The notes below the pieces were generated by a model. It was not told the DNA's origin and made no database searches. It saw only the letters and a list, made by a program, of their open reading frames with translations. Below, piece after piece: positions 2,724 through 46,932 of a stretch of 64,000 nt of DNA. The stretch comes from an uncultured Alphaproteobacteria bacterium. GTDB taxonomy: Bacteria; Pseudomonadota; Alphaproteobacteria; Rhizobiales; Xanthobacteraceae. The stretch's first letter is position 1, and every line of letters begins with the position of its first letter. The DNA is taken from assembly GCA_963836055.1 (NCBI GenBank), contig CAWIID010000005.1, positions 17,042 through 81,041 on the forward strand, read 5' to 3'. The position numbers were made by a program, and so were the translations under genes.

Positions 2724-2732
2724 GATTGACCC

Positions 2733-4304: not shown

Positions 4305-4316
4305 TGTCCTCGCTCG

Positions 4317-9629: not shown

Positions 9630-9696
9630 CTTTTCGCCTTTGGGCGGGAGCTGTTGATGCCGTGGAAGGAATGTTCGGTCATGGACGAGCGACTGC

Positions 9697-9849
9697 GATT
9701 TGTCGCCCGGGGTCGAAAAACAAATCCTTGACGCCCTGAAAGCTCCAGGGCGCGCCGAGGGCGTACGGAAGATCGCCGCACGGTTTGGCGTTCGCGCAAG
9801 CACTGTTCAACGGATCAAGCGCCCTTTCGCCGAAAGCGTGGCCGCGTGA
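9697..9849 (+). other. resolvase/invertase-type helix-turn-helix remnant (no catalytic domain)
   Basis: A frame open from 9658 encodes ...SPGVEKQILDALKAPGRAEGVRKIAARFGVRASTVQRIKRPFAESVAA*, which matches the C-terminal HTH_7 pattern of serine recombinases. Only a TTG start is available. Confidence 0.35.
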
Positions 9850-10063
9850 ATCCATAGGTGCTTCGAACTCAAAACCATTTGCCCTGTATTTAACGTTAAA
9901 TCCTGATCGCAATTGATTTGCTCGCTTAGCCTTGAGAGGCTGAAATTGAGGCAGCACCTCGTCCCCGACGCACCACACGCGCTGTCTCCGAGTCCTGGGC
10001 TTCCTCACCCGGAACTCCATCGTTTGATTAGGCCATGTGGCGGAAACCAACGCGGAAGCAAAG

Positions 10064-12348: not shown

Positions 12349-12831
12349 TCAGTGTCGACTCGGCTTCGGACTTGGTGTCGGCGTAGAACTTGAACTCGAC
12401 GATGTGTCGCTCGGCCAATACGGCGCGACGACGCTTGGTCCGTAATACGGCGCATACGTAGTGACGGGGCCTGAATCGGATTGGCTCGACCAACTGCGAT
12501 AGTAGGTCGGCGCCGGCGGCGGCAGCGGCCGGTCCGGCGGCGGTATGATTTCAAGGCGTCCGTAACCCGGACGGCGGCCTGATTTCGGGTAATAGGCCGG
12601 AACCCTGTAGGGCGTCGCAACCACGAGCGGACGAAAGATGATGGTCGGCGTCACTTGACCGGGCCGGTTCAGGCCGAACTCGCCCTCGACGATAGCCCAT
12701 GAGGCGTCAACCCCATTGATGTACACGGGCACGCCCGGCTTGCCTGGAATGACAATGACAGGTCCCTTCTGAGCGAACGCCGGGGACGCACTGACGGCTA
12801 ACAGTAACGCGGCTCGAACAACAACACGCAT
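12349..12831 (-). CDS. secreted Pro/Tyr-rich hypothetical protein
   Basis: It has the signal peptide MRVVVRAALLLAVSASPAFA|QK, followed by VYINGVDASWAIVEGEF... and a PPPDRPLPPPAPTYY low-complexity tail. Confidence 0.6.
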   Translation of the reverse strand: MRVVVRAALLLAVSASPAFAQKGPVIVIPGKPGVPVYINGVDASWAIVEGEFGLNRPGQVTPTIIFRPLVVATPYRVPAYYPKSGRRPGYGRLEIIPPPDRPLPPPAPTYYRSWSSQSDSGPVTTYAPYYGPSVVAPYWPSDTSSSSSSTPTPSPKPSRH

Positions 12832-13152
12832 CGGCTACTCGTAGTGTTGGCACGATGGCTGTGAACTGTACGGAAAACGCGCGCCTAATTGGTTTAAAAC
12901 TGGCCAATTAACCCGCTGAATTATTTGGTAACATTAACTCGCCGCTACCGCTGCGCCGCCGCGCGCCGGCTGCACCATTTTCAGTTCGCTGGCAGCGACC
13001 ACCAACTTTCGGATTACGACCTCTGGCGGACAGACAGAGCGTAAACCGCGCATTAGCCTTGATGCTGGAGTCGCCCCCGGCTGTGCGATGCGGTCATCAT
13101 CGGTGCCGCGCGGCAATTCCTAAAGATCACGGATTTAAGGGGGAGATCGCCT

Positions 13153-14781
13153 ATGACGACAATGACATTGAATCCGCCCCGCTCGGGCGGCATGACGAGC
13201 GAAGAACGTCTCGTCATCTTCGCGTCCTCGCTGGGGACAGTCTTCGAATGGTATGATTTCTACATCTACGGCACGCTTGGCGTATTCCTCGCCAAATACT
13301 TCTTCTCCAACGTACCCGCCAATGTCGGCTTCATCTTCGCACTGCTCGCGTTCGCCGCCGGCTTCGCGGTTCGGCCGTTCGGCGCGCTGATCTTCGGCCG
13401 GTTCGGCGACATGATCGGCCGCAAATACACCTTTCTCATCACCATGAGCCTGATGGGCATCGGCACGTTCTTCATCGGCGTGCTCCCAGGCTATGCGACA
13501 TGGGGCATCTTTGCACCGATCGTGCTGATAGGCTTGCGCCTGGTCCAGGGCCTCGCTCTCGGCGGCGAATATGGCGGCGCGGCGATCTACGTCGCCGAGC
13601 ACGCGCCGGCCAACAAGCGCGGCTATTACACGTCATGGATTCAGACGACCGCGACGCTCGGCCTTTTCATGGCGTTGCTCCTGGTCCTCGGCATCCGCAC
13701 TTCGATGGGCGAAGACGCCTTCGGCAGTTGGGGCTGGCGCATACCGTTCCTGCTTTCCGGCATCCTGCTCATTGTCTCCATCTGGATCCGGCTCAAGCTC
13801 AATGAGTCGCCGGTATTTCAGCGCATGGTCGACGAGGGCAAGGCGTCCAAACGGCCACTATCCGAAGCTTTCGGCGAATGGAAAAACTTGAAGATCGCAA
13901 TCCTCGCCTTGCTCGGCGCGACGGCCGGCGAAGCTGTCATCTGGTACGGCGGACAGTTTTATGCGCTGTTCTTCTTGACCCAGACCTTGAAGGTTTCACC
14001 GGTCTCGGCAGCGATCATGATCGCCATCGCGCTCGCGATCGCGACGCCCGGCTTTATCCTGTTCGGCTCGTTGTCTGACAGGATCGGTCGCAAGCCGATC
14101 ATGCTGGCGGGTTTCGCGCTCGCGGTCGCGACCTACTTCTTCATCTTCCAGGGCCTCACCCACTTCGCCAACCCGAAGCTGGAGCAGGCGCTCGCCAACG
14201 CGCCGGTGACGGTGACTGCGGACCCGGGCGAATGCTCGTTCCAGTTCAAGGCGACGGGTACTGAGAAATACACGACTGGCTGCGATAACATCAAAGCCGC
14301 GCTGGTGAATCTATCGGTCAACTACGATAACGTCACCGCTCCGGCGGGCACCAAGGCAAGCGTCAAGATCGGCGATCAGACCATCGCCGCCGATACGCCC
14401 AACCTTGCCGCCGTGATCGCCTCGGCCGTGAAGAACCACGGCTACCCGGCATCGGCCGACCCAAAGGACATCAACTATCCGATGACGGTGCTGCTGCTCG
14501 CGATCCTGGTCGTGTTTGTGACCATGGTGTACGGACCGATCGCAGCTTGGCTGGTGGAGATGTTTCCGACCCGCATTCGGTATAGTGGCGTGTCGCTGCC
14601 ATACCATATCGGCAACGGGTGGTTCGGTGGCTTCTTGCCAGCGACGGTATTCGCCATCGTGGCGGCCACCGGCAACATCTACTCCGGGCTCTGGTATCCG
14701 ATCGTGGTGGCGGCGATGAGCTTCGTTGTCGCGCTGATCTTCCTGCCGGAGACCAAGGACGTCGATATTACGCGTGCGTGA
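13153..14781 (+). CDS. MFS transporter, metabolite:H+ symporter (MHS/ProP-like) family
   Basis: 542 aa. It has the GTVFEWYDFYIYG N-terminal motif, RPFGALIFGRFGDMIGRK (MFS motif A) and 12 or more hydrophobic segments with a long central soluble insert. Confidence 0.88.
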   Translation: MTTMTLNPPRSGGMTSEERLVIFASSLGTVFEWYDFYIYGTLGVFLAKYFFSNVPANVGFIFALLAFAAGFAVRPFGALIFGRFGDMIGRKYTFLITMSLMGIGTFFIGVLPGYATWGIFAPIVLIGLRLVQGLALGGEYGGAAIYVAEHAPANKRGYYTSWIQTTATLGLFMALLLVLGIRTSMGEDAFGSWGWRIPFLLSGILLIVSIWIRLKLNESPVFQRMVDEGKASKRPLSEAFGEWKNLKIAILALLGATAGEAVIWYGGQFYALFFLTQTLKVSPVSAAIMIAIALAIATPGFILFGSLSDRIGRKPIMLAGFALAVATYFFIFQGLTHFANPKLEQALANAPVTVTADPGECSFQFKATGTEKYTTGCDNIKAALVNLSVNYDNVTAPAGTKASVKIGDQTIAADTPNLAAVIASAVKNHGYPASADPKDINYPMTVLLLAILVVFVTMVYGPIAAWLVEMFPTRIRYSGVSLPYHIGNGWFGGFLPATVFAIVAATGNIYSGLWYPIVVAAMSFVVALIFLPETKDVDITRA

Positions 14782-14787
14782 CGACAT

Positions 14788-14813
14788 TGCGGGACGGCCT
14801 TTGCCGTCCCGCA
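14788..14813 (+). terminator. rho-independent-type hairpin TGCGGGACGG-cctttg-CCGTCCCGCA
   Basis: A 10-bp perfect stem starts 7 nt after the MFS stop and is followed by TATCTTCCTC. It lies between convergent genes. Confidence 0.55.
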
Positions 14814-14868
14814 TATCTTCCTCGACCCTGATCGCCCTCCCCTGCTCTGCGGCGGAGGGCGATCCATT

Positions 14869-15150
14869 TTACGGAATCTCAGGCCAGATCAGCCGCCGCG
14901 CGATGAAATTGCGCAGTGCTGACGCCACAGCGCACAACAGTGCGAACGCCATTGTTGCAGCCGCGATCTCAGGAAGGCTTGCCGTCAAACTATCCGCGAC
15001 GCTCGTGCTCGTGCCGACCGCCGCGCGCAAAGGTCCAAGCGTTTTGAATAGGCCCGCCAGCGCGCCGAGCGCGGCGCCGTAGCCGGCCGCGCGCGTGACG
15101 CTCCACGCGCGCACGCCGTCCCGCGAAGTGTAAAGCGAAGGAAGCGGCAT
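14869..15150 (-). CDS. small hypothetical membrane protein
   Basis: 93 aa with two hydrophobic stretches (AAGYGAALGALAGLF, IAAATMAFALLCAVASAL). No family was recognised. Confidence 0.4.
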   Translation of the reverse strand: MPLPSLYTSRDGVRAWSVTRAAGYGAALGALAGLFKTLGPLRAAVGTSTSVADSLTASLPEIAAATMAFALLCAVASALRNFIARRLIWPEIP

Positions 15151-15179
15151 ATCTTGCGTCGAACTCCCGGCTGTCGACG

Positions 15180-16052
15180 CTATTCCGCAGCCTCGACTTG
15201 CATCGAGGGCTGCGCAACGAGACTGCCAAGATCGGGCAGCACAAGCCGGAGAATTTCCGTTTCTTCCCGCGCCACGAACTCGGCCTGTTCGCCCTCCTCA
15301 AGGTGAAGCGAGGAATATTGCCGATAGGGCGCGTCGTGCACGATACCGGAGCCAGACAGCACGAGATAAACGCTGCGTTCGCCGGCAGCGTAAGCGGCAC
15401 CGCGCGCGAGCTTGAGCAGCGAAGCGGCGCATTGGCGTTCCGTGAAAGTGCCGAGCTGCTTCTGTGAAACACCCGGCGCGCCGGCGACCGGAAGCCATTC
15501 ATAATTGGCTGGATCGACCATGATCGGATCGCGATAGCGCGGTTTCGGGTACTCCATCCGCTGGCCGTGGGCATTTTCCCAGATCGCCTGATAGCCATCG
15601 ACATTGCGGCGGCCTTCGACATCATCGTTACGGCGGAAGATGCCGTCTTTGAATGTTCCGTATTTCCTCAGCTCCTCGGTCCCGGCAGCAACTTCCTCGC
15701 GCGACAGATATCCGCTGCCGCTGGCGCCGCCGAATTGCAGCACCGCCGTCGAAGAGCGGCCTTCGGAGCTCTGCGGCCCGTAGGCGGCGCCTTCCGGGAA
15801 ATAGCCGAATGTGCCGGCGGTCATCTTGCCGTTGCGGTCGAAGTTCATCGTGCCTTCGAGCTGGAAGCGAAACTGGTCGAAGTTGTGCCGGTGGCGCGGC
15901 GAGGCGAAATCGCCCTCAAGCTGACCAATGTTAAACTGGAAGTTGCCGAGCGTCCCGGGCGTGCCATTGAGCAAGTGCCGGTAGTGAAACGTGCCGCCCC
16001 GGTGCTGCAGGCCGCGCTTCCATTCCACTTCGTCGCTATGTACGATTTTCAT
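15180..16052 (-). CDS. cupin domain protein (bicupin-like)
   Basis: 290 aa with the cupin metal motif SPRHRHNFDQFRFQLEG and a second beta-barrel-like half. Confidence 0.7.
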   Translation of the reverse strand: MKIVHSDEVEWKRGLQHRGGTFHYRHLLNGTPGTLGNFQFNIGQLEGDFASPRHRHNFDQFRFQLEGTMNFDRNGKMTAGTFGYFPEGAAYGPQSSEGRSSTAVLQFGGASGSGYLSREEVAAGTEELRKYGTFKDGIFRRNDDVEGRRNVDGYQAIWENAHGQRMEYPKPRYRDPIMVDPANYEWLPVAGAPGVSQKQLGTFTERQCAASLLKLARGAAYAAGERSVYLVLSGSGIVHDAPYRQYSSLHLEEGEQAEFVAREETEILRLVLPDLGSLVAQPSMQVEAAE

Positions 16053-33419: not shown

Positions 33420-34457
33420 TCATGCCGCTTCCCGGTCGAGCACTTGCAAGAGCTTCCGCAAGGCCTCTACCAACTCGTCATGACTGCGCTCATGGCCGGT
33501 TGGAGCCGGCGCACGCTGGAAGAAATGCGCAGGAAACGCTGGCATCTTGCGGTCGCTGCTGACGCCATCGTTAGCCGCACGTCGCCGGATCTTTTTCATC
33601 CGCGGCCGGCCGACGGTCCTGGTCAACATCGACCGCATGTATAACCCGGCGACCATCAATCCGATGACGCCAATCACAACAAGCCCTGTTGACATTTCAC
33701 CGGAAGGGGCCGCCGCCGGGACCGGACCAATGACTGATAGATCCGACGCTTTGTCGTTCCCCGCGTCATTCCCGGCCTGCGCAGACGGCGCGGAAGGCTT
33801 CTGTGCGGTGTCCTCGGGAACCGTTTCCGCAGGAGCAGTAGCGGCTGACACCGGCGGCTCAGGCCAAGCCGTAGTGTCGGCACTGGACTGCGATGGAGGC
33901 TCAGGCGATGCCGCTTTGCTGATGCTGCCTGTCGACGGCGGCTCAGGCCAGACGGTCGCATCGGAACGAATCTGTGGTGGCTCGGGCGACGCCGTTTTGC
34001 TGGTGCCAGCCGGTGACGGGGGCTGCGGCCAAGCAACGGTTTCAGCATTGGCCGGCGCCGGCGGGTCCGGCCAAGCCGCCGTTTCGGCACCCGCAGGTGC
34101 TGGCGCATCCGCTCGGGTCGCCACGCCGGCACGCGGCTTGCCGCTTGCTCGAACGCTACTTCGCGCATGTTCTGGCGTGTGCACGGGGCTGGATGCAGCC
34201 GATACGGGCGTCGCCGCTTCGGGTTGTTCCTGTGCGGCCGTTTCCGGGACCGCTTGGTCTTTCGGCCGCACATGCCAGCATTTGCGCTGCGTCGCGCGGT
34301 CTTCGTGGTAATACCAGTGGCTCCCCGCCGGCGCCGCCCCATTCGGCGCGGTGAGGCAATCATCTTCCGCGCGCGCGAAACCTGCCTTCAGGCTGACCCC
34401 CGCCAGCACCGTGACCAGCGCGGCAGCCACTGGAACCAATCCGGCCTTGGCCCTCAT
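33420..34457 (-). CDS. Pro-rich repeat protein with N-terminal signal and C-terminal TM anchor
   Basis: It starts MRAKAGLVPVAAALVTVLAGVSLKAGFARA, then CLTAPNGAAPAGSHWYYHEDRATQRKCW. It has five W-P-(D/Q/E)-P-P repeats and a late helix GLVVIGVIGLMVAGLYM. Confidence 0.6.
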   Translation of the reverse strand: MRAKAGLVPVAAALVTVLAGVSLKAGFARAEDDCLTAPNGAAPAGSHWYYHEDRATQRKCWHVRPKDQAVPETAAQEQPEAATPVSAASSPVHTPEHARSSVRASGKPRAGVATRADAPAPAGAETAAWPDPPAPANAETVAWPQPPSPAGTSKTASPEPPQIRSDATVWPEPPSTGSISKAASPEPPSQSSADTTAWPEPPVSAATAPAETVPEDTAQKPSAPSAQAGNDAGNDKASDLSVIGPVPAAAPSGEMSTGLVVIGVIGLMVAGLYMRSMLTRTVGRPRMKKIRRRAANDGVSSDRKMPAFPAHFFQRAPAPTGHERSHDELVEALRKLLQVLDREAA

Positions 34458-34701
34458 GTCCCCTCCGATACCAATGGCTCGGAAAAATTCTCCCTCGAAT
34501 TCGACCTCAATGCGTCGCGAATCCGGCAATTCCGTGTTTCCGGGTGCCTAAGCGGTATCCGAATCCCGATTCGCGCCGCCCATTGGCGCGAGAGCCCGGG
34601 CTTAAGGCTGTGCGAAGTCCCAAATAAATGTTTGCAACCTTACCATCCAACTTCTATACGTAATAATACAAGTCTAAAACATCAGTTCTAATTGTAATTC
34701 C

Positions 34702-34956
34702 ATGATTACTGCGGGCCAGCTCAGGGCTTCTCGGGCACTCCTTGGCATCGATCAACGTAAGCTCGCGGAAGCCGCAGGGCTCTCGCTGCCAACAATTCAG
34801 CGGATGGAGGCGAGCGAAGGGGTTGTACGCGGCAACGTCAATTCGCTGATGAAGCTCGTCGCCGCGCTTGATGCGTTCGGTATCGAGCTCATTTCCGACA
34901 ACGCCTCGACCCAAGCCGGTGGACGAGGCGTGCGACTTAAGAGGGCGGGGTCGTGA
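34702..34956 (+). CDS. XRE-family helix-turn-helix transcriptional regulator, first gene of the hyf-like operon
   Basis: ITAGQLRASRALLGIDQRKLAEAAGLSLPTIQRMEAS. Its stop overlaps the GTG start of the next gene (GTGA). Confidence 0.75.
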   Translation: MITAGQLRASRALLGIDQRKLAEAAGLSLPTIQRMEASEGVVRGNVNSLMKLVAALDAFGIELISDNASTQAGGRGVRLKRAGS

Positions 34957-36962
34957 CGCTCACGATTGTCCTTGTTTGCGCCGCGATCCTGCTCGCCCTG
35001 GCCCCGCTCGCCGTGGCGCTCAGCAGCTCAAGCACGGCGACGCGGGTCATCTATGGCGCCAGCATGGTCGCGTCGACGGTTTCGCTCGCAGCCGCACTGG
35101 CATACCTTCTCGGCGCATCGAGCCCTGAAAGCACCACCCTTCCGGTTGGCGTGCCCTGGCTTGGTGCGCATTTGCGCATTGACGCGCTCTCGGCCTTCTT
35201 CCTCATCGTGGTTGATCTTGGCGCCTTGAGCGCAAGCTTGTTTGCGCTCGGCTACGGCCAACATGAAACGTCGCCGGAGCGCGTGCTGCCGTTCTTTCCT
35301 GCCTTCCTCGCCGGCATGACGCTGGTCGTGCTGGCCGATGACGCCTTCACATTTCTGCTCTCCTGGGAATTCATGTCGCTGACCTCGTGGGCGATGGTGA
35401 TGTCGCATCACCGCGTGCCGGAGAATGTGCATGCCGGTTTTGTTTATCTGGTCATGGCGAGCTTCGGGACGCTCACTTTGCTGCTCGCCTTCGGCCTGCT
35501 CGCGGGACCCGATGGCCTTTATACGTTCGCGCAGATGCGCGACGCCCATCCGTCAGCGGCACTCGGCGCGCTGGCATTGATCCTCGCACTCATCGGAGCG
35601 GGTTCGAAGTCGGGTCTCGTTCCCCTGCACGCGTGGCTGCCGTTAGCGCACCCGGCCGCTCCAAGCCATGTTTCCGCCCTGATGAGCGGCGTGATGACGA
35701 AGGTCGCTGTCTACGGCTTTGTGCGCATCGTCTTCGATCTCGCGGGCAGCCCGGCGTGGTGGTGGAGCATCGTCGTGCTCGCAGTTGCCGGAGTGACGAC
35801 CGTGATGGGTGTGCTCTATGCGCTGATGCAGCACGACCTCAAGCGGCTGCTTGCCTATCACACCGTGGAGAACATCGGCATTATCTTCATCGGGCTCGGG
35901 CTTGCGCTCGCCTTCAAGGCGCACGGCATGCTGTTCCCTGCAGCGCTCGCACTGACCGCAGCGCTCCTCCACGTGTTCAACCACTCCTTGTTCAAGAGCC
36001 TCTTGTTCTTCGGCGCCGGTGCGGTGCTCACCGCAACCGGCGAGCGTGACATGGAGCACCTTGGCGGCCTCATTCATCGCATGCCGCGAACCGCATTCGT
36101 TTTTCTCGTCGGTTGCGTCGCGATCTCCGCGCTGCCGCCGCTCAACGGCTTCGTCTCCGAATGGCTGACATTCCAAGCGATCCTGCTGAGCCCGCAACTG
36201 CCGTCGTGGGGGCTTAAGCTTATGGTGCCGGCCGTCGGCGCATTATTGGCGCTTTCCGCCGCGCTGGCCGCCGCCTGCTTCGTCAAGGCCTACGGCGTAA
36301 CCTTTCTCGGCCGTCCGCGCACGCGCGCCGCCGAAGATGCTTCGGAAACCGACCAGTATTCGCTAGCCGCGATGATGCTTCTTGCATCGTTGTGCCTCGC
36401 TGCCGGAATCCTGCCCGGCCTGTTCATCGACGCGCTGGCGCCAGTCAGTTCCGCTCTGATCGGCGAGCACATGCCGGTTCAAATCGGCGCGCAATGGCTC
36501 TCCATCGTTCCGATTGCCGCCAGCCGCAGTTCCTACGACGGGCTTCTGGTATTTATGTTCATGGTCATCTCGGGCACTCTCGCGGCGTCCGCGATTCACC
36601 GCTTCGCTTCGGATCGGCTGCGCCGGGCGCCCACCTGGGACTGCGGCTATCCGGATGCTAGTCCGGCGACCCAATACTCGGCCATGAGTTTTGCGCAGCC
36701 GATCCGGCGCGTGTTCGGCACCATCGTATTTCGCGCGCGCGAGCATGCCGAGATACCGCCGCCTGGCGACACGCGGCCGGCGCGACTGACGGTGGAACTG
36801 CACGATCTTATCTGGGAGGCGATCTACGCGCCCATCGCTGTCGGCATCGGCTTTGCCGCCGACCGCCTCAATCGCCTGCAGTTTTTGACCATCCGCCAAT
36901 TCTTGACGTTGGTGTTCTGCACTCTCGTCGCTCTGCTGTTGGTGCTCGCCGCATGGTCCTGA
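34953..36962 (+). CDS. HyfB/NuoL-like proton-translocating antiporter subunit (Ehr-type complex)
   Basis: 669 aa and polytopic. It has the Mrp/NuoL motifs WEFMSLTSW and GSKSGLVPLHAWLPLAHPAAPSHVSALMSG. Confidence 0.88.
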   Translation: MTLTIVLVCAAILLALAPLAVALSSSSTATRVIYGASMVASTVSLAAALAYLLGASSPESTTLPVGVPWLGAHLRIDALSAFFLIVVDLGALSASLFALGYGQHETSPERVLPFFPAFLAGMTLVVLADDAFTFLLSWEFMSLTSWAMVMSHHRVPENVHAGFVYLVMASFGTLTLLLAFGLLAGPDGLYTFAQMRDAHPSAALGALALILALIGAGSKSGLVPLHAWLPLAHPAAPSHVSALMSGVMTKVAVYGFVRIVFDLAGSPAWWWSIVVLAVAGVTTVMGVLYALMQHDLKRLLAYHTVENIGIIFIGLGLALAFKAHGMLFPAALALTAALLHVFNHSLFKSLLFFGAGAVLTATGERDMEHLGGLIHRMPRTAFVFLVGCVAISALPPLNGFVSEWLTFQAILLSPQLPSWGLKLMVPAVGALLALSAALAAACFVKAYGVTFLGRPRTRAAEDASETDQYSLAAMMLLASLCLAAGILPGLFIDALAPVSSALIGEHMPVQIGAQWLSIVPIAASRSSYDGLLVFMFMVISGTLAASAIHRFASDRLRRAPTWDCGYPDASPATQYSAMSFAQPIRRVFGTIVFRAREHAEIPPPGDTRPARLTVELHDLIWEAIYAPIAVGIGFAADRLNRLQFLTIRQFLTLVFCTLVALLLVLAAWS

Positions 36963-37909
36963 TCCGCGATCTGGCCACTCAGGGCGCCCAGATGCTGCTG
37001 GTGCTGATCTTGGCGCCGCTGTTCACGGGTTTCGTGCGCAAGGTAAAGGCGCGTTTGTTGCGGCGGCAGGGTCCACCGCTGATCCAGCCCTATCTCGATC
37101 TCATCCGGCTCACACGCAAGGAGGTGGTGCTGGCGGAGAGCGCCTCGTGGCTGTTCCGCGTCATCCCCTATCTGATCTTCGCCGCCACTTGGGTTGCGGC
37201 GTCTCTGGTGCCGACATTCCGCACCGGGCTGTTGTTCTCGTGGTCGGCTGATCTCATTGCCATCGCGGCACTTTTGGGCAGCGGACGCTTTTTCCTGGCG
37301 CTCGCCGGAATGGATGTCGGCACGAGCTTCGGCGGCATCGGTTCAAGCCGGGAAGTGATGATCGCCTCGCTCGCCGAGCCGGCGATGCTCATGATGGTGT
37401 TCACGCTGGCGCTGATCGCCGGCTCGACCCAGCTTTCCACCATGGCCGCCTTCATGGCGTCGTCCGCGGTCGGGCTGCGCGTCTCGCTTGGGCTGGCGCT
37501 CATCGCCCTCATCATGGTGGCGATCGCCGAGAACAGCCGTATTCCGATCGACAATCCGGCGACGCATCTTGAGCTGACCATGGTGCACGAAGCGATGGTG
37601 CTCGAGTATTCGGGCCGGCATCTTGCGCTGATCGAGCTTTCGTCTTCGCTCAAGCTTATTCTTTACACCTCGCTGATCGCCTGCCTGTTCGTACCCTGGG
37701 GAATCGAGTCAGCGAGCGCAACAATGTCGACCCTGGCCGTCGGCGTTGCCGCCTACATCGGAAAGCTGGCCGTGGGCGGTTTCCTGCTCGCGCTGTTCGA
37801 GACGTCGATCGCCAAGATGCGCGTGTTTCGCGTGCCGGAATTTTTGGGCGCCGCGCTGATGCTCGGTTTGCTCGCAACTCTCTTGCGCTTCGTATCCGGG
37901 AGTTTCTGA
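36953..37909 (+). CDS. HyfC/HycD/NuoH-like membrane subunit
   Basis: 318 aa. It has the RKVKARLLRRQGPPLIQPY N-terminal motif and DNPATHLELTMVHEAMVLEYSG. Confidence 0.88.
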   Translation: MVLIRDLATQGAQMLLVLILAPLFTGFVRKVKARLLRRQGPPLIQPYLDLIRLTRKEVVLAESASWLFRVIPYLIFAATWVAASLVPTFRTGLLFSWSADLIAIAALLGSGRFFLALAGMDVGTSFGGIGSSREVMIASLAEPAMLMMVFTLALIAGSTQLSTMAAFMASSAVGLRVSLGLALIALIMVAIAENSRIPIDNPATHLELTMVHEAMVLEYSGRHLALIELSSSLKLILYTSLIACLFVPWGIESASATMSTLAVGVAAYIGKLAVGGFLLALFETSIAKMRVFRVPEFLGAALMLGLLATLLRFVSGSF

Positions 37910-38571
37910 TGACGGGGATCGATTTCGACGTCGCCCATCTGCTCGCCGGCTCGCTGGTGCTGGTCAGTTTCATGGAACTCTATCAGGACCGGCTTTATGC
38001 CCTGCTCAACATTTATGCCTTGCATGCCTTGGTGCTCGCGGCGTCGGTTGCCTGGCAGGCGTTCATCCAGGACGCGCCGCATCTCTATGTCACCGCGGCG
38101 ATCGCGCTGATCTTCAAGGCGATTATCATTCCCGTGGCGCTGCACCGGATGATTGTCCGGTTGGGTATCCATCGCGAGATCGAAAACGTGGTCGGCGTGG
38201 GCCCCGCCATGCTGGCCGGCATCGGGCTCGTTGCGTTGTCCATGGTGGTGATGTTGCGCGTAACCCAGGAAGCCGATCCGCTGGCGCGCGAGGACCTCGC
38301 TTTCGCGCTCTCGGTGGTGCTGCTCGGCCTTTTGATGATGGTGACGCGGCGCAACGCCGTGAGCCAAGTCGTAGGCTTCATGTCTCTCGAAAACGGCCTG
38401 GTCCTGGCCGCAACCGGCGCCAAGGGCATGCCGCTCGTGGTCGAGATCAGCGTCGCATTCTCCATCCTCATCGCCTTCATCGTGATCGGAATTTTTCTGT
38501 TCCGCATTCGCGAGCGCTTCGACAGCGTCGATGTGCAGGCGCTCGATCGTTTTCGCGGAGAGCGGCGATGA
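37909..38571 (+). CDS. HyfE-like (NuoK-related) membrane subunit
   Basis: 220 aa with 6-7 TM segments and the VVGFMSLENGLVLAA motif. It has ATGA overlaps at both ends. Confidence 0.8.
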   Translation: MTGIDFDVAHLLAGSLVLVSFMELYQDRLYALLNIYALHALVLAASVAWQAFIQDAPHLYVTAAIALIFKAIIIPVALHRMIVRLGIHREIENVVGVGPAMLAGIGLVALSMVVMLRVTQEADPLAREDLAFALSVVLLGLLMMVTRRNAVSQVVGFMSLENGLVLAATGAKGMPLVVEISVAFSILIAFIVIGIFLFRIRERFDSVDVQALDRFRGERR

Positions 38572-40022
38572 CTTTTTATGGCGTGACGTTCAATCCCTTA
38601 GCCGGAGTCCTCGCCGTTCCCGCTTTCGCCGCGGCGTTGTTCGCGGTACTGCCCGCGTATCGGCTGACCGCGCGGCTCAACGTGCTGGCGACAACCCTGA
38701 CTTTGCTGTGCGCGCTTTCGCTGTTCGTCGGAAAGCCACAGCCTAATTCCTATCTTCTGGTCGATGATCTCAACAGCACGTTCATCGTGCTCTCGACATT
38801 CGTGGGTTTCACCACAAGCATATTCAGCGCCAGCTATATCGGCCACGAACTCGACATCGGCCGGTTGACGCCGCAGTCCGTGCGCTTCTATCACGCGATG
38901 TATCAGGTCCTGATGTTCGCGATGAATCTCGCGCTCGCCGCCAACAATATCGGCCTGATGTGGGTGGCGATCGAGCTTGCCACCCTCACGACGGTGCTGA
39001 TGGTCGGCATCTACCGCACGCACGAGGCGCTCGAGGCGGCGTGGAAATATTTCATCCTCGGCAGCGTCGGCATCGCACTCGCGTTGTTTGGTACGATCCT
39101 GGTCTATATGGCGGCGCGGCCGGTCGTGGGTGAAGGTCTCGACGCCATGGTCTGGTCCGTGCTCGTCAAGCGCGCCGGCGCCTTCGACCCGGCGCTGCTC
39201 AATGTCGCGTTTGTCTTTCTGCTACTCGGCTACGGCACGAAAGTCGGGCTCGCGCCATTACACGCCTGGCTGCCCGATGCGCACGCCGAGGGCCCGACAC
39301 CGATTTCGGCGGTGCTGTCGGGATTACTGCTCAATGTCGCGCTTTACGCCCTGTTGCGCTTCAAGATGCTGCTGGCGGCAAACACCGGTGCGCTCGCGCC
39401 CGGCCCGTTGATGGTGACGCTCGGATTACTTTCACTCGTCTTCGCCGCGTTCATGCTTTACCGCCGGCGCGACATCAAGCGCATGTTCGCCTATTCGTCG
39501 ATTGAGCATATGGGCATCATCACCTTCGCCTTCGGCATGGGTGGACCGCTCGCCAATTTTGCCGGCCTGCTGCACATGACCATGCATTCGCTCACCAAGT
39601 CGGCGATATTTTTTGCCGTCGGCCATGTCGCCCAGGTCAAGGGGACGCAACGGATCGCCGACATGGGTGGCCTGACCGAAACCCATCCGGTGCTTGGCTG
39701 GGGGTTGATCCTGGGCGTCCTGGCCATCGCCGGACTGCCGCCGCTCGGCATTTTCATGAGCGAATTTCTGGTCATCAGCTCGACCTTCGCCCGCGCGCCG
39801 TTGCTCGCGCTTGTTCTCGTTTTTGGCATTCTCGTCGGCTTTGCCGCTCTGTTCCTGCGGCTCAACAGCATCGCGTTCGGCGAGCCGCGCGGTCCTACGG
39901 CCAAGGCGCAGGCCTCCTACGTCCCGATGTTCGCCCATCTTGGCCTCGTCCTGCTCGCCGGCATTTATATGCCGCCGGCGCTGGTCGCCTGGTTCCAGAA
40001 CGTTGCCGGACTGCTGGGTTAA
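38568..40022 (+). CDS. HyfF/NuoN-like antiporter subunit
   Basis: 484 aa with GTKVGLAPLHAWLPDAHAEGPTPISAVLSG and YSSIEHMG motifs. Confidence 0.88.
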   Translation: MTFYGVTFNPLAGVLAVPAFAAALFAVLPAYRLTARLNVLATTLTLLCALSLFVGKPQPNSYLLVDDLNSTFIVLSTFVGFTTSIFSASYIGHELDIGRLTPQSVRFYHAMYQVLMFAMNLALAANNIGLMWVAIELATLTTVLMVGIYRTHEALEAAWKYFILGSVGIALALFGTILVYMAARPVVGEGLDAMVWSVLVKRAGAFDPALLNVAFVFLLLGYGTKVGLAPLHAWLPDAHAEGPTPISAVLSGLLLNVALYALLRFKMLLAANTGALAPGPLMVTLGLLSLVFAAFMLYRRRDIKRMFAYSSIEHMGIITFAFGMGGPLANFAGLLHMTMHSLTKSAIFFAVGHVAQVKGTQRIADMGGLTETHPVLGWGLILGVLAIAGLPPLGIFMSEFLVISSTFARAPLLALVLVFGILVGFAALFLRLNSIAFGEPRGPTAKAQASYVPMFAHLGLVLLAGIYMPPALVAWFQNVAGLLG

Positions 40023-40026
40023 AACG

Positions 40027-41541
40027 ATGCCCGCGCTGATCGACATCATTCGCGGCAAACGAGTTGACGATCATCGCCCCTGGCCGCGTTTGATGGTCAC
40101 GACCGATGTTTGGAGCGAGGTTGCGACCGAACTCGCCGCCGGCCGCGCAACGCTGCTTGGCCTCTGGGGCGATTCCAGCGCCTCGTACGCAGTGCACATG
40201 GCGATCGTGGACCAACAGGACGCAAGCGACATCGCCGTCGTGAGCCTCGAATGTCCGAACGAAACGTTTCCGTCGGTTGGCGCGCTACACCCACCTGCCA
40301 TACGGCTCGAACGCGCCATCTTCAGTCTCTACGGGCTCCAACCAGTCGGCGCTCCGGATTTGCGACCGTGGCTCGATCTCGGCTTTTGGGATGTGCAACG
40401 GCCGCTCGGCACGCGCATCTCCGCGCCGGATGTAAGGCCGCCCTACCCGTTTTTGCCGGTGGAGGGTGAGAGCCTGCATCAAATCCCGGTCGGGCCCGTA
40501 CACGCCGGCATCATCGAGCCGGGACATTTTCGTTTCACCGCCGGCGGTGAGACCGTGGTGCGGCTCGAAGAACGCCTCGGCTATGTGCACAAGGGCATCG
40601 AGTCGCTGATGGCAGGGGCGGAGATCGGGCGGGCCGCACGCCTTGCCGCGCGCACGTCCGGCGACAGCACTGTGGCCTACGGAATCGCATTTGCTCATGC
40701 TGTCGAGGCGGCTTTGAACGTCGAAGCGCCGCCACGAGCGCAATATTTGCGTGCGCTGATGGCCGAGCTTGAACGGCTGGCAAATCACTTCGGCGACATC
40801 GGCGCCATCTGCAACGACGCCTCGTTCGCGCTCATGCATGCGCATTGTGGAATCCTGCGCGAACTGGTGTTGCGCACCGCCGAACGCTGCTTTGGCCATC
40901 GTCTGATGATGGATCGCGTCATCCCTGGCGGCGTCGGCGCCGATCTCACCTCATCCGGCATTGCGGTCCTGAAAGAGGCTTTGCAACATTTCCGGCTGCG
41001 GTTTCCCAGCCTGATCGAACTTTACGACAACACGGCCTCGCTGCAGGACCGCACCGCCCGCACCGGTATCGTAAGTGTCGAATTGGCCCGGCAGTTCGGA
41101 GCGTCCGGCTATGTTGGGCGCGCCAGCGGCCGCAACTTCGACGCACGGAAAAGCCCGGGTTACGCGCCGTACAACGAACTCAACTTCGACGTTCCGGTGC
41201 TGACGGCCGGCGATGTCAATGCCCGGGTGTGGATCCGTATCCGCGAAGTGGAGCAAAGCCTGGCGCTGATAGAGCAACTGATCGAGCGCCTGCCGACCGG
41301 ATCGATCAACACCGCACTCGATGGCGGCAGCGGCGAAGGTTTGGGCTTTGCGGAAGGCTTCCGCGGGGATGTGCTGGTCTCGGTGCGGCTCGACGGCGCA
41401 CGCATCGTGCGTTGCCATCTGCGCGATCCGTCGTGGTTTCAGTGGCCGCTGCTGGAGGCCGCAATCGAAGGCAACATCGTTGCCGACTTTCCACTCTGCA
41501 ACAAGTCGTTCAACTGCTCGTATTCGGGGCACGACTTGTAG
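40027..41541 (+). CDS. HyfG/HycE-like NuoC-NuoD fusion large subunit lacking the [NiFe] cysteine ligands
   Basis: It has the IPVGPVHAGIIEPGHFRF and ERLGYVHKGIE motifs. The position of the RxCGxCxxxH motif reads RTSGDSTVAY (40651-40680). The C-terminus reads FPLCNKSFNCSYSGHDL where HycE has PLIIGSLDPCYSCTDR. The ORF-track start at 39811 overlaps hyfF, so the ATG at 40027 is used. Confidence 0.85.
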   Translation: MPALIDIIRGKRVDDHRPWPRLMVTTDVWSEVATELAAGRATLLGLWGDSSASYAVHMAIVDQQDASDIAVVSLECPNETFPSVGALHPPAIRLERAIFSLYGLQPVGAPDLRPWLDLGFWDVQRPLGTRISAPDVRPPYPFLPVEGESLHQIPVGPVHAGIIEPGHFRFTAGGETVVRLEERLGYVHKGIESLMAGAEIGRAARLAARTSGDSTVAYGIAFAHAVEAALNVEAPPRAQYLRALMAELERLANHFGDIGAICNDASFALMHAHCGILRELVLRTAERCFGHRLMMDRVIPGGVGADLTSSGIAVLKEALQHFRLRFPSLIELYDNTASLQDRTARTGIVSVELARQFGASGYVGRASGRNFDARKSPGYAPYNELNFDVPVLTAGDVNARVWIRIREVEQSLALIEQLIERLPTGSINTALDGGSGEGLGFAEGFRGDVLVSVRLDGARIVRCHLRDPSWFQWPLLEAAIEGNIVADFPLCNKSFNCSYSGHDL

Positions 41542-41656
41542 GGAGCAAAGGACGACACTATGCGCAGAAAGCTTTTCGAGGGCTTGACGCACCGTCCCCT
41601 CACCGAAGCGCCGCCGCTCATCGAGCGACGAGGCGCGTGACGAGCTTGCCAGGCAA

Positions 41657-42094
41657 TTGGATCGCGCGGCGCGGCGGCGCTTGGGACGAAGCCTGTCGAT
41701 CCGCGAGGTGGACGCCGGCTCATGCAACGGCTGCGAGCTCGAAATCAATGCGCTCAATAATGCGTTCTACGATCTCGAGCGCTTTGGCCTGCGCTTCGTC
41801 GCCTCGCCGCGCCACGCCGACGTGCTGCTGGTGACGGGACCGGTGACCAAGAACATGCGCGAGGCGCTGGAGCGGACCTACCGCGCAACGCCGGACCCCA
41901 AGTGGGTGGTGGCGGTGGGAGACTGTGCGCTGGACGGCGGGATTTTCGCGGGCAGCTACGCCGTCACCGGAGGCGTTTCGAATGTGGTCCCGGTCGATCT
42001 GCATATTCGCGGCTGCCCGCCGTCGCCCACCGAACTCCTGAAGGGATTGATCGCGCTGCTGGATCATGCAGGCAATAAAACCAGCGTGGCCTGA
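41657..42094 (+). CDS. HyfI/HycG/NuoB-like [4Fe-4S] small subunit (N-terminus possibly longer, see findings)
   Basis: The GSCNGCE, GDCA and GCPP cysteine motifs are all present. The listed start is a TTG. Confidence 0.85.
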   Translation: MDRAARRRLGRSLSIREVDAGSCNGCELEINALNNAFYDLERFGLRFVASPRHADVLLVTGPVTKNMREALERTYRATPDPKWVVAVGDCALDGGIFAGSYAVTGGVSNVVPVDLHIRGCPPSPTELLKGLIALLDHAGNKTSVA

Positions 42095-44607: not shown

Positions 44608-45243
44608 ATGGCGCAGGCGAAACGTAGTTCCAAACTGAAGCGACGGAAGGCAGCCTTGGTCTTGGGGGCAGCCGGCGTTTCTTTGGCGATGGGCGGCCGG
44701 GCATCGGCAACCGCGCCGGCGACGAACGTACCGTCGGAGGACAACGCGAACCGAATTGTTCTCGGCGAAGAGGAAATATCTGACATCAGTTTGGCGACCT
44801 TCCACGTCTTCGACAAGGAAAACGAGCCTCTGCTTCGCCAAGGCCTGAGAGTTGCAGCGGGCTGTGGTCACGGCGGCGGTTGCGGCGGTTGTGGTCATGG
44901 CGGCGGCTGCGGCGGTTGTGCTCATGCCGGCGGCTGCGGTGGTTGTGCGCGTGGTGGCGGCTGCGCGGCGGCTCGTATCGGCTGCGCCGGCGGTTGCGCG
45001 GCGGCTCATGTCGGCTGCGCCCGCGGCTGTGCGGCGGTTCATGTCGGCTGCGCCCGCGGCTGCGTTGCTCATGTTGCCTGCGCCCGCGGTTGCAGGGGTC
45101 TCGGCTGCGGAGGCGGCTGCCGCGGGGGCTGCGCTTGCGCTGGTGTATGGATCGGAGGAGCCTGCTTTGGCTGTGGCATAGGCTTCGGAACCTGCTGGCA
45201 ATGGGACCCGGCCTTGGGCCAGTGGATCTACGTCTGCTTTTGA
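44608..45243 (+). CDS. secreted Cys/Gly-rich repeat protein (GCGGC / GCA(R/H) units)
   Basis: It has the signal-like N-terminus KLKRRKAALVLGAAGVSLAMGGRASA and a linker LGEEEISDISLATFHVFDKENEP. About 110 aa follow that are almost only C/G/A/H/R, ending in an aromatic tail TCWQWDPALGQWIYVCF. Confidence 0.65.
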   Translation: MAQAKRSSKLKRRKAALVLGAAGVSLAMGGRASATAPATNVPSEDNANRIVLGEEEISDISLATFHVFDKENEPLLRQGLRVAAGCGHGGGCGGCGHGGGCGGCAHAGGCGGCARGGGCAAARIGCAGGCAAAHVGCARGCAAVHVGCARGCVAHVACARGCRGLGCGGGCRGGCACAGVWIGGACFGCGIGFGTCWQWDPALGQWIYVCF

Positions 45244-45661: not shown

Positions 45662-46932
45662 CAGTCTGCTGAAAAACCGCTCGCCACGACGGGAGTTTGC
45701 TGATTCAGTTTTGTAAGACAAATCGGCGGAGGCTTGCATGCGCGGCGCATTTGTGGATCAGGGCCGGTTGTTTTCGTACATTTCGCCGGAGGCGCGGGTT
45801 CCGAAGAGCCACCCGTTGCGGAAGATTCGAGAGCTTGTCCGTGATGTGTTGAGCGAACTGAGCCGCAGCTTGGAGAAGCTGTACGCGAGCGAAGGACGCC
45901 CCTCGGTTCCGCCGGAACAATTGCTCAGCGCGTTGCTGCTGCAGGTGTTCTACGGCATCCGTTCGGAGCGGCAGTTGATGGAACAACTGGATTACAATCT
46001 TTTGTACCGCTGGTTCGTGGGACTTTCGCCCGACGATCCGGTCTGGGATCCGACCAGCTTCACCAAGAACCGCGACCGGCTGCTGCACGACGGCGACGTA
46101 TTCGCCAAGTTCATGACCAAGCTTCTGAACCATCCGCAGGTCAAGCCGCTGTTGTCGGACGAGCATTTTTCTGTGGATGGCACGCTGATCGAGGCCTGGG
46201 CCTCGCAGAAGAGCTTTCGCCCTAAGGACGGCAGCGACGACGATGGCGCCAACTTCCACGGCCAGAAGCGCAAGAACGACACCCATGCCAGCACCAGTGA
46301 TTCCGACAGTCGCCTTTATCGCAAGGCCGCCGGGCGGGAGGCAAAGCTGTCCTACATGGGCCACGCCACTATGGAGAACCGGCATGGGCTGGCGGTCGCC
46401 GGCATGGTCACGCTCGCCAACGGCACCGCCGAGCGTCGCGCCGCCGAGAGGATGCTCAAAGCCAAGGCCAAGCAGGCCGGCCGCCGCATCACCGCCGGCG
46501 CGGACAAAGCCTATGACACGGCCGATCATGTCGCCAAGCTTCGCGCCCTCAACGTCACACCGCACGTGACGCAGAACGACGGCGTCACCAAGACCGGCAA
46601 GCGCCGCCGCAGCGCCATCGACCAACGGACGACGCGCCACCAAGGCTACGGCATGTCGCAATCGCGCCGCGCCATGATCGAATGCCTGTTCGGCTGGGGC
46701 AAGCAGCACGGCACCATGCGCAAGACCAAACATCGCGGCATCGCCAACGTCGCTGCCGACTTCCTGCTCAACCTGATCGCCTACAACCTAATTCGCATTC
46801 CTAAACTGATCGCAGCATAGCAAGCAGGCGTTCAGGGACCAAAGGCGCCGCTCGAATACATCGCCAGAACCGCCCACCCTCTTCAAACAACAAAGAGCAA
46901 CGGCCCCAAATTCCAGGTTTTTCCGCAGACTG
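45662..46932 (+). mobile_element. IS5-family insertion sequence (1271 bp) with ~20-bp terminal inverted repeats and CTAG target-site duplication
   Basis: The left end reads CAGTCTGCTGAAAAACC. The right end reads GGTTTTTCCGCAGACTG, which is its reverse complement with one mismatch. CTAG is present at 45658-45661 and 46933-46936. It contains a single DDE transposase ORF. Confidence 0.85.
45738..46820 (+). CDS. IS5-family DDE transposase (InsH N-terminal domain + DDE_Tnp_1)
   Basis: It has HPLRKIRELVRDVL...GRPSVPPEQLLSALLLQVFYGIRSERQLMEQLDYNLLYRWFVGL, SVDGTLIEAWAS, AGADKAYD and a C-terminal LIAYNLIR. Confidence 0.93.
   Translation: MRGAFVDQGRLFSYISPEARVPKSHPLRKIRELVRDVLSELSRSLEKLYASEGRPSVPPEQLLSALLLQVFYGIRSERQLMEQLDYNLLYRWFVGLSPDDPVWDPTSFTKNRDRLLHDGDVFAKFMTKLLNHPQVKPLLSDEHFSVDGTLIEAWASQKSFRPKDGSDDDGANFHGQKRKNDTHASTSDSDSRLYRKAAGREAKLSYMGHATMENRHGLAVAGMVTLANGTAERRAAERMLKAKAKQAGRRITAGADKAYDTADHVAKLRALNVTPHVTQNDGVTKTGKRRRSAIDQRTTRHQGYGMSQSRRAMIECLFGWGKQHGTMRKTKHRGIANVAADFLLNLIAYNLIRIPKLIAA

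Follow-up and report, generated by a model that had tools for sequence, protein, structure and literature searches.

Introduction

The large subunits of group 4 [NiFe] hydrogenases turn over H2 at a cofactor made of Ni and Fe(CO)(CN)2, which is put in by the Hyp proteins, and in the NuoD subunit of complex I a tyrosine (R-L-D-Y-V-S) and a histidine of the beta1-beta2 loop (A-H-G-V) are the ligands of the quinone. The complexes called Hyq and Ehr are, in evolutionary terms, intermediate between complex I and the hydrogenases of group 4; they are very common, with more than 600 GTDB species among the matches listed here and thousands of homologues in soil metagenomes. The name Ehr is credited to Coppi (2005), Vignais and Billoud (2007) and Marreiros et al. 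(2013) in the passages of PMC4758237, PMC6349859, PMC10284858 and PMC7894505 that deal with these complexes; the same passages describe large subunits without Ni-Fe ligands, and give no function for them.

The closest described system is the Hyq complex of Azorhizobium caulinodans, present in other alpha-proteobacteria as well (Ng et al., 2009, PMC2650096; Sprecher et al., 2012, PMC3357923); it is encoded by seven genes, in A. caulinodans under the control of NifA and sigma-54. Its HyqG is a 504-aa NuoC::NuoD fusion with cysteines at about 258-262, 491 and 497, and its HyqI has Cys55, 58 and 152. Both Cys-X-X-Cys motifs are missing from HyqG proteins, and a Ni-Fe site in them was called "uncertain, if not unlikely" by the authors (PMC3357923). 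The functional data on Hyq and Ehr consist solely of the in vivo H2 phenotypes of A. caulinodans, which are at odds with the missing Ni-Fe ligands. The Cys-less large subunit, whose novelty was implied in a first-pass annotation of the DNA analysed here, is already in the literature, for HyqG orthologues since 2012 and for Ehr complexes generally.

Results

Gene Content and Order of the Operon

The window, that is, the whole 64,000-nucleotide stretch of DNA that was analysed, carries at 34702-42094 (+) a complete seven-gene hyqRBCEFGI operon (Table 1), all of whose genes could be placed in their families by Pfam and NCBIfam profiles. The gene at 40027-41541 is very probably hyqG, the peripheral NuoC::NuoD/HycE-like subunit of a six-subunit complex-I-like membrane complex. 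Number and order of the genes are those of A. caulinodans, and the order R-B-C-E-F-G-I is common to the window, to 80 GTDB species loci and to Rhizobium johnstonii 3841, a species listed in the published Hyq work, whose pRL11 locus is fully syntenic with the operon and whose WP_011655038 is 65% identical to HyqG. HyqB and HyqF score above the cutoffs of the NCBIfam profiles for hydrogenase 4 subunit B (NF005086, 884 bits, cutoff 667) and subunit F (NF005043, 873 bits, cutoff 533), and HyqE (4.4e-25, 88.8 bits) below that of the hydrogenase 4 membrane subunit (NF008556, cutoff 136). The stop of hyqR overlaps the start of hyqB; of the 80 related loci, most have hyqR in the equivalent place, and its counterpart in R. 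johnstonii 3841 is annotated as a helix-turn-helix regulator.

Table 1. Features of the hyq locus, in positions of the window.
Feature	Coordinates	Strand	Description	Basis
hyqR	34702..34956	+	84-aa regulator of the XRE helix-turn-helix type; opens the operon	Pfam HTH_3/HTH_31
hyqB	34953..36962	+	669-aa NuoL/HyfB-like antiporter-type membrane subunit	Pfam Proton_antipo_M; NCBIfam NF005086
hyqC	36953..37909	+	318-aa NuoH/HycD-like membrane subunit	Pfam NADHdh 6.8e-38
hyqE	37909..38571	+	220-aa HyfE-like small membrane subunit	NCBIfam NF008556; weak Pfam Oxidored_q2
hyqF	38568..40022	+	484-aa NuoM/N/HyfF-like antiporter-type membrane subunit	Pfam Proton_antipo_M; NCBIfam NF005043
hyqG	40027..41541	+	504-aa NuoC::NuoD fusion, HycE-like large subunit; all four Ni-Fe cysteines replaced	Pfam, phmmer, model
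Former L1 ligand motif	40651..40680	+	R209-T-S211-G-D213-S214-T-V-A-Y against HycE R-V-C-G-I-C-G-F-A-H	phmmer
Former L2 ligand motif	41512..41538	+	N496-C497-S498-Y-S-G501-H-D-L against HycE D-P-C-Y-S-C-T-D-R	phmmer
hyqI	41560..42094	+	NuoB/HycG-like small subunit, frameshifted	Pfam Oxidored_q6 7.1e-36

Around the operon, no relay subunit of the NuoI/HycF type was found, the motif CxxCxxCxxxC[PAG] occurring in no frame of the window, and CxxCxxCxxxCP lies within 10 kb of hyq in only 3 of the 80 related loci. Clustering of the flanking ORFs of these loci gave no conserved neighbour gene beyond hyq, its top clusters being artefacts produced by overlapping reading frames within hyq, and the contigs of three distant representatives (P0148, P0204 and P0191) were too short to hold partner genes. 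There are no nif genes in the window and no hyp or hup genes among its scanned ORFs. Upstream of hyqR, neither a NifA box (TGT-N10-ACA) nor a sigma-54 core (TGG-N9-TGC), as expected of a control region like that of A. caulinodans, is present in 34300-34710; a single sigma-70-like site lies at 34640-34667.

The small subunit retains the codons of all four [4Fe-4S] cysteines (41723-25, 41732-34, 41924-26 and 42014-16), as the first-pass annotation had stated, although its gene is frameshifted: a DNA alignment with two related loci (L002 and L001) places a 1-bp insertion near 41624 that cuts off the first ~21 codons. The frame opened by the ATG at 41560 ends at a TGA (41638-41640), and the Fe-S core lies in the +1 frame, whose first start is a TTG at 41657. 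In an intact 177-aa orthologue, 97% identical, the four residues are Cys55/58/122/152, in agreement with the A. caulinodans numbering, and CxxC...C...GCPP is found in 72 of 72 HyqI orthologues. The frameshift counts against Hyq activity in this particular strain.

Loss of the Four Metal Ligands in HyqG

The reading frame of hyqG begins with the ATG at 40027, five bases past the hyqF stop, and the length of its product agrees with the 503-508 aa of its homologues; it is a NuoC::NuoD fusion with C262, C491 and C497 and without either of the two CxxC motifs. HyqG matches Pfam Complex1_49kDa (2.1e-43) and Complex1_30kDa, its score for NiFeSe_Hases (24.2 bits) staying under the gathering score of 25.8. 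In phmmer comparisons it is nearest to E. coli HycE (7z0s_E, from the solved FHL complex; E = 8.7e-52 over residues 74-501), followed by MbhL (8.8e-38) and NuoD (about 1e-34).

The first-pass annotation had aligned the protein with HycE by eye and had noted that all four cysteine ligand positions appear substituted; phmmer reproduces that alignment exactly, pairing "artsgdstvay" with "drvcgicgfah" and "plcnksfncsysg" with "pliigsldpcysc", and the coordinates, codons and residues given there, together with the flanking motifs, all agree with the sequence. The N-terminal cysteine pair is occupied by S211 (TCC, 40657-40659) and S214 (AGC, 40666-40668), and the C-terminal pair by S498 and G501. 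Neither signature of the group 4 large subunits, R-x-C-G-x-C-x-x-x-H or D-P-C-x-x-C-x-x-R/H, is present, and fold and homology are those of the group. The protein ends with the L2 motif, followed by the stop codon at 41539-41541, and so has no C-terminal extension for protease processing. Since S211, D213, S214, S498 and G501 stand in the place of the four metal-binding cysteines, HyqG is unable to bind a canonical Ni-Fe centre. The large-subunit fold of [NiFe] hydrogenases is nevertheless kept in the predicted structure, an AlphaFold model (pLDDT 89.8, pTM 0.93) whose best PDB match is HycE 7z0s_E (TM 0.93/0.88); the earlier view that the fold was retained while the metal site was lost is thus borne out.

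Conservation of the Replacement Residues

Orthologues bear the same pattern throughout. Among 120 close homologues, S-G-D-S is found in all 110 that could be parsed and the C-terminal S..G in 119, which answers the call for an orthologue check of the Ser/Ser/Ser/Gly pattern, and all 75 motifs recovered from the 80 GTDB species loci read S-G-D-[STN] / S-Y-S-G. Among divergent representatives clustered at 50% identity, 69 of 75 are Cys-less and only 6 carry the four cysteines; of the 69, Ser is found at position 211 in 53 and at 498 in 56, Asp at 213 in 61 and Gly at 501 in 64, and the hydrogenase-type E164 is kept in 61. G212 is invariant in the family, and by column entropy positions 211, 213, 498 and 501 fall within the most conserved 6-20% of the NuoD-like domain. 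The pattern lies far beyond chance and recurs in orthologues, hundreds in number, with as little as 35% identity; the replacement of the cysteines is very probably an old, selected remodelling common to several phyla, and not decay. Strain-specific decay of HyqG was rejected, the pattern being universal in the orthologues.

Within the alpha-proteobacterial clade, conservation extends to C262, C491 and C497 of HyqG. The first of them is no replacement ligand, because in the phmmer alignment HycE has a cysteine there too, and the other two cannot be general substitutes, because outside the proteobacterial Hyq clade position 491 is mostly I or V and position 497 mostly L. The displaced cysteines of CNKSFNC were considered as substitute ligands; this pair was rejected, being unconserved outside the Hyq clade, and there is no N-terminal cysteine pair anywhere near the L1 site.

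The Quinone Ligands of NuoD

A phmmer alignment with NDUFS2 places G212 of HyqG at the quinone-ligand tyrosine (RLD-Y-VS) and I163 at the histidine (PAA-H-GV). The beta1-beta2 loop of HyqG (HAGIIEPGHFRF) is identical to that of true four-Cys relatives, unlike that of NuoD, and the scores against the NCBIfam NuoD equivalogs NF004739 (216, cutoff 360) and TIGR01962 (169, cutoff 459) are under threshold. A NuoD-type quinone site in HyqG was rejected, both its Tyr and its His being missing.

Discussion

The reading that we consider the most likely is that Hyq, a minimal module of the complex I type, has no [NiFe] centre and combines redox chemistry with ion translocation. Its sole redox cofactor would be the N2-type [4Fe-4S] cluster of HyqI. 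Because no relay subunit of the NuoI/HycF type is encoded, electrons would pass without an intermediary between this cluster and a soluble carrier of low potential, similar to ferredoxin or flavodoxin, on the cytoplasmic side. The other partner of the cluster would be an acceptor bound in a chamber formed by HyqG, HyqI and HyqC, most plausibly a quinone in view of the aerobic, ubiquinone-containing hosts; its mode of binding would have to differ from that in NuoD, because the Tyr and the His are missing. The remodelled pocket of HyqG, having kept the hydrogenase-type Glu164 and gained Asp213, may act as a source or a relay of protons, and HyqB, HyqF, HyqC and HyqE would translocate ions in a step coupled, possibly reversibly, to the redox reaction. 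Taken as one explanation, the identity of hyqG and this mechanism are likely to hold; the particular route from carrier to HyqI cluster to chamber acceptor, coupled to ion translocation, is a tentative proposal to which we give somewhat less than an even chance. Against it stand the literature, in which Hyq and Ehr complexes have neither a named electron donor nor a named acceptor, the replacement of the NuoD quinone ligands by G212 and I163, the report that some Ehr-bearing lineages are without quinone biosynthesis (PMC6349859), and the roughly ten-fold shift of in vivo H2 evolution in hyq deletions of A. caulinodans (PMC3357923), a change that a pure carrier:quinone model explains only indirectly.

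It is precisely from these deletions that another view draws its strength, namely that Hyq is a genuine H2:quinone "endo-hydrogenase" (Ludwig laboratory), with a non-canonical H2 site in HyqG, Cys-free or built in some other way. In N2-fixing cultures of A. caulinodans at 20 uM O2 the loss of hyq raises H2 evolution about 15-fold, below 1 uM O2 it lowers it, the diazotrophic doubling time becomes about 21% longer (8.8 vs 7.2 h), and the operon is NifA-dependent (PMC2650096, PMC3357923); furthermore, HyqG agrees with the true four-Cys relatives in the proton-relay E164, in the invariant Gly212 and throughout the beta1-beta2 loop. However, no orthologue has any of the four Ni-Fe ligands, and the published evidence is one of in vivo genetics alone, with no purified enzyme, from authors who themselves doubted the metal site, and in which a hup hyq double mutant goes on evolving H2 (PMC3357923). 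In addition, the operon is carried by many lineages that are not known to fix N2 (such as Terriglobia, Gaiellales, Methyloceanibacter and Brevundimonas), nif, hup and hyp genes are absent from its neighbourhood, and in the window it lacks an upstream NifA box or sigma-54 core. We therefore regard a hydrogenase of this kind as unlikely.

If redox chemistry is given up altogether, Hyq could be a cation/proton antiporter of the Mrp type, in which HyqG and HyqI would be structural or regulatory, for example as a redox sensor. The two antiporter-like subunits, accompanied by NuoH- and HyfE-like ones, would fit such a role, as would the lack of a catalytic metal site and of a NuoI-type relay or donor module in or near the operon; nevertheless, the Fe-S cysteines of HyqI are kept in every orthologue and the ex-ligand pocket is among the most conserved parts of HyqG, both of which point to a functional site close to the cluster, and make the antiporter improbable.

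Two further readings concern the pocket itself, and each has slender prospects, slighter than those of the antiporter. The first, put forward in the first-pass annotation, is that the pocket binds quinone exactly as NuoD of complex I does, and it can appeal to the homology with NuoD and NuoB, to the presence of a NuoH-like subunit, to the H2:ubiquinone oxidoreductase inferred by Sprecher et al. (PMC3357923), and to the Ser at the second ligand position, as in the NuoD R-L-D-Y-V-S; it is opposed by the invariant glycine at the Tyr position, by an isoleucine at the His position within a hydrogenase-like loop, and by the NuoD equivalog score under its cutoff (216 against 360). The second is that S-G-D-S / S-Y-S-G, together with Glu164, makes up a new Cys-free catalytic or ion/substrate-binding centre in the [NiFe]-hydrogenase fold. 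Such an active site would be of a new type, and not a chamber for the relay of electrons or protons; it would explain the Hyq-dependent uptake and evolution of H2 reported in A. caulinodans, or would catalyse some other small-molecule redox reaction beside the HyqI cluster.

Finally, that HyqG is a hydrogenase decayed in this strain, or that misalignment masks its real ligands (C491/C497 and another pair, for instance), is scarcely credible, for even if hyqI is frameshifted and C262, C491 and C497 are conserved in the alpha-proteobacterial clade, hyqG is intact and full-length, hundreds of orthologues have the same Cys-less pattern, the latter two cysteines give way to I/V and L across the wider family, and no N-terminal pair lies near the site, C262 being shared with HycE.

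In summary, models of how Hyq and Ehr complexes function are constrained from two sides: by the strong cross-phylum conservation of Ser, Asp, Ser/Thr/Asn, Ser and Gly at the former metal site, and by the missing NuoD quinone ligands together with the missing NuoI-type relay subunit. The window contributes one further orthologue to this picture, and offers no new handle on function.

Comparison with Known Systems

The MBS/Mbx sulfane-sulfur reductase of Pyrococcus furiosus (PDB 6U8Y) is likewise derived from group 4 and has a hydrogenase-like subunit without a Ni-Fe centre, which still works beside the proximal cluster. It is much farther from HyqG (2e-24 against 6u8y_L) than HycE is; it also includes a NuoI-like subunit, and its subunits of the Mrp type are far more numerous.

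Complex I shares with Hyq the homologous core modules NuoC, NuoD, NuoB, NuoH, NuoL and NuoM, the ligands of the N2-type cluster being kept in Hyq, and NuoD, like HyqG, has no Ni-Fe cysteines and a Ser at the second ligand position; in contrast, Hyq is without NuoI, NuoEFG, NuoA, NuoJ and NuoN, and has exchanged the quinone Tyr and His. In sequence and structure HyqG is best matched by the E. coli group of formate hydrogenlyase (HycE/HycG; PDB 7Z0S) and hydrogenase-4 (Hyf), and the flanking motifs of HycE are nearly identical to those of HyqG. Unlike in these enzymes, all four Ni-Fe cysteines of HyqG are replaced and the C-terminal extension is missing, and the operon of the window has no HycF/HyfH (NuoI-like) subunit, no HyfA ferredoxin subunit, no HyfD and no formate dehydrogenase partner.

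With the Hyq of A. caulinodans, the locus agrees in its genes and their order, in the length, fusion and cysteines of HyqG, and in the numbering of HyqI; it differs in its host, an uncultured Xanthobacteraceae-like bacterium, in the frameshift of hyqI and in the control region, which in A. caulinodans answers to NifA and sigma-54. Large and small subunits of the group 4 type, membrane subunits similar to NuoH and to antiporters, and the missing Ni-Fe ligands also make it an Ehr complex, although Ehr is a broad and heterogeneous label, within which the locus belongs to the proteobacterial Hyq subgroup, distinguished by the extra C491/C497 pair and by a dedicated HTH regulator.

The large subunit HyqG

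The gene hyqG is the sixth of seven co-oriented, tightly packed genes (see the table) and starts with ATG; a longer alternative ORF, initiated by TTG from 39811, runs into the preceding gene, and all HyqG homologues are 503–508 residues long. The protein matches the Pfam families Complex1_49kDa (2.1e-43) and Complex1_30kDa, with NiFeSe_Hases just under its gathering score, and it is therefore a fused NuoC::NuoD or HycE-type “large subunit.” Its top PDB match by phmmer is HycE of the E. coli formate hydrogenlyase (7z0s_E, 8.7e-52, residues 74–501), followed by MbhL (8.8e-38) and then by many NDUFS2/NuoD chains (~1e-34), and HycE is again the structure closest (TM 0.93/0.88, rmsd 2.7 Å) to a confident AlphaFold model (pLDDT 89.8, pTM 0.93; input alignment of 35 sequences).

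In the phmmer alignment, R-V-C-G-I-C-G-F-A-H of HycE lies against R-T-S-G-D-S-T-V-A-Y, and P-L-I-I-G-S-L-D-P-C-Y-S-C against P-L-C-N-K-S-F-N-C-S-Y-S-G, so that the ligand positions are S211, S214, S498, and G501. The first-pass annotation had proposed, from the sequence alone, that all four Ni-Fe cysteine ligands were substituted (Ser/Ser/Ser/Gly) and that the fold was kept while the metal site was lost; the substitution is confirmed, every codon cited is correct, and the model agrees as to the fold. Thus, the predicted structure is that of a hydrogenase large subunit deprived of its canonical metal ligands. As the protein ends three residues past G501, it also has no C-terminal processing extension.

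The pair C491/C497 (CNKSFNC), which had been considered as possible substitute ligands, is conserved in the proteobacterial clade but not outside it, position 491 being mostly Ile/Val and position 497 mostly Leu in the wider family, and the candidate is rejected. Since, moreover, there is no Cys pair near the N-terminal motif of HyqG, and C262 aligns by phmmer with a Cys also present in HycE, a hidden canonical site is excluded.

Conservation of the replacement residues

The motifs S-G-D-S-T-V-A-Y and N-C-S-Y-[SA]-G-x-D-x are found in all 120 closest database homologues (75–97% identity, mostly Xanthobacteraceae metagenome bins). A GTDB scan with one genome per species gave at least 600 matches, and in the best 80 loci, which were those analysed, gene order and motifs are identical throughout; these belong to Bradyrhizobium, Rhodopseudomonas, Mesorhizobium, Rhizobium, Azospirillum, Methyloceanibacter, Hyphomicrobiaceae, beta- and gamma-proteobacteria, Terriglobia, and others. 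When representatives of 50%-identity clusters were searched exhaustively with HMMER, 7,932 relatives were recovered at E ≤ 0.001, and among the 75 top full-length representatives aligning through both motifs (34–60% identity) all four Cys occur in only 6, being absent from 69. The Cys-less proteins carry Ser at 211 (53/69), Asp at 213 (61/69), Ser/Thr/Asn at 214 (53/69), Ser at 498 (56/69), and Gly at 501 (64/69), and columns 211, 213, 498, and 501 are within the most conserved 6–20% of the NuoD-like domain. The divergence between the two groups is almost confined to the ligand-site residues: ER-x-C-G-[VAS]-C..H and NKSF[EN]LCY[SA]C.D[RKL] in the four-Cys relatives, against ER-x-S-G-D-S..H and NKSFNLSY[SA]G.DL in the Cys-less ones. 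The pattern is common to the orthologues rather than a strain-specific decay, and the loss of the cysteines is due neither to decay nor to chance: the site was remodelled long ago, under selection.

The small subunit HyqI

The cluster cysteines of HyqI, which the earlier annotation rightly described as complete, lie in GSCNGCE, GDCA, and GCPP (41723, 41732, 41924, and 42014), correspond to Cys55/58/122/152 of an intact orthologue, and are kept in 72 of 72 orthologues. The gene carries a 1-bp insertion near 41624 with respect to two ENA metagenome contigs, L002 (97% identical) and L001 (79% identical): the frame from ATG 41560 ends at TGA 41638–41640 while the +1 frame holds the Fe-S core, whose ORF restarts at TTG 41657, so that the first ~21 codons are detached. 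The insertion may be genuine, in which case it would inactivate or truncate the gene, or it may be an indel introduced in assembly. The latter is plausible because the comparison contigs themselves have split genes, several in L001 and, in L002, hyqF (59 + 439 aa, 8541–9996) and a TPP enzyme (269 + 310 aa, 12737–14450), which indicates frequent indel errors in such assemblies.

Beside a four-Cys HyqG relative, a true hydrogenase, locus L006 encodes a small subunit of 274 aa (2434–3258) with a faint Fer4_7 match on top of Oxidored_q6, which suggests an additional Fe-S domain, absent from the small subunit of Hyq.

The operon and its surroundings

Coordinates of the hyq operon and of other features in the window
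Feature	Position	Strand	Description
cydAB	1572-4304	-	Cytochrome bd oxidase subunits I and II, high-affinity terminal oxidase
369-aa ORF	33420-34529	-	Pro/Ala-rich, one hydrophobic segment; divergent upstream of hyqR; no Pfam match
hyqR	34702-34956	+	HTH regulator, 84 aa
hyqB	34953-36962	+	NuoL/HyfB-like subunit
hyqC	36953-37909	+	NuoH-like subunit
hyqE	37909-38571	+	HyfE-like subunit
hyqF	38568-40022	+	NuoM/HyfF-like subunit
hyqG	40027-41541	+	Large subunit, ATG start, 504 aa
hyqI	end 42094	+	NuoB/HycG-like small subunit
211-aa ORF	44608-45243	+	Basic N-terminus, then Gly/Cys-rich repeats (GCGHGGGCGGC...); no Pfam match
Tandem repeats	44863-45093		Within the 211-aa ORF; DNA periods 27 and 33
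Transposase	45738-46820	+	IS-type DDE (DUF772 + DDE_Tnp_1), ~3.6 kb downstream of the operon

The membrane part comprises two antiporter-like subunits, one NuoH-like and one HyfE-like. Neither the window nor the surroundings of orthologous operons yielded a NuoI/HycF-type ferredoxin subunit, and no other conserved neighbour gene was found; the window ORFs scanned included no nif, hup, or hyp genes, and upstream of the operon neither a NifA box nor a sigma-54 promoter core was found.

In three related loci (L015, L022, and L033, about 2500–4900) an additional hyqR-like and hyqB-like pair directly precedes a normal operon, which amounts to a third antiporter-like subunit, and in seven others, mostly Bradyrhizobium (L012, L018, L024, L025, L026, L034, and L040), a second hyqR-like HTH gene lies on the minus strand immediately 3′ of hyqI. 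In L002 the position of the 369-aa ORF is occupied by a 345-aa gene, and the 211-aa repeat ORF is also called (14658–15293); in the window, the strand opposite the repeat ORF holds a 273-aa ORF. The presence of cydAB is consistent with a microaerobic respiratory lifestyle.

Possible function and relation to known systems

The pocket that replaces the Ni-Fe ligands is polar and conserved, and the N2-type cluster site is retained. The reading preferred here, though tentatively and at somewhat less than even chances, is that Hyq is a minimal complex-I-like redox-coupled ion pump, in which electrons from a soluble low-potential carrier would enter directly at the HyqI cluster and pass on to an acceptor in the HyqG/HyqI/HyqC chamber, with protons being handled by the remodelled pocket. 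The acceptor would most plausibly be a quinone, bound otherwise than in NuoD: the NuoD-style site suggested in the first-pass annotation is not supported, as its Tyr and His ligands are absent from HyqG (invariant G212 and I163, respectively), which, like hydrogenases, retains the hydrogenase-type Glu164 and the beta1-beta2 loop.

The main rival, which we consider unlikely, is the published claim that Hyq is a real bidirectional H2:quinone endo-hydrogenase; it draws on in vivo H2-evolution and growth phenotypes of hyq deletion mutants, and a double mutant still evolved residual H2. More improbable still is a non-redox antiporter role, which fits poorly with the strictly conserved Fe-S cysteines and pocket.

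The window makes the question of Hyq function no more tractable. The hyqRBCEFGI operon was described in Azorhizobium caulinodans (PMC2650096), and such complexes, more broadly called Ehr, have repeatedly been described as group-4-related, devoid of Ni-Fe ligands, and with no function assigned; the Cys-less large subunit is thus already known for the Hyq/Ehr family. HyqG is a 504-residue NuoC::NuoD fusion according to Sprecher et al. (2012; PMC3357923), and the protein of the window, which carries C262, C491, and C497, has the same length; Cys55, 58, and 152 of the intact HyqI orthologue likewise fit the numbering given for A. caulinodans. The pRL11 locus of R. johnstonii 3841, a species named in PMC3357923, is syntenic with the window, and its HyqG (“NADH-quinone oxidoreductase subunit C” in RefSeq) is 65% identical, the C-terminal 28 residues being the same. 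Given this match to the published features, the loss of the cysteines in the window is a correct rediscovery of a known property of these complexes.
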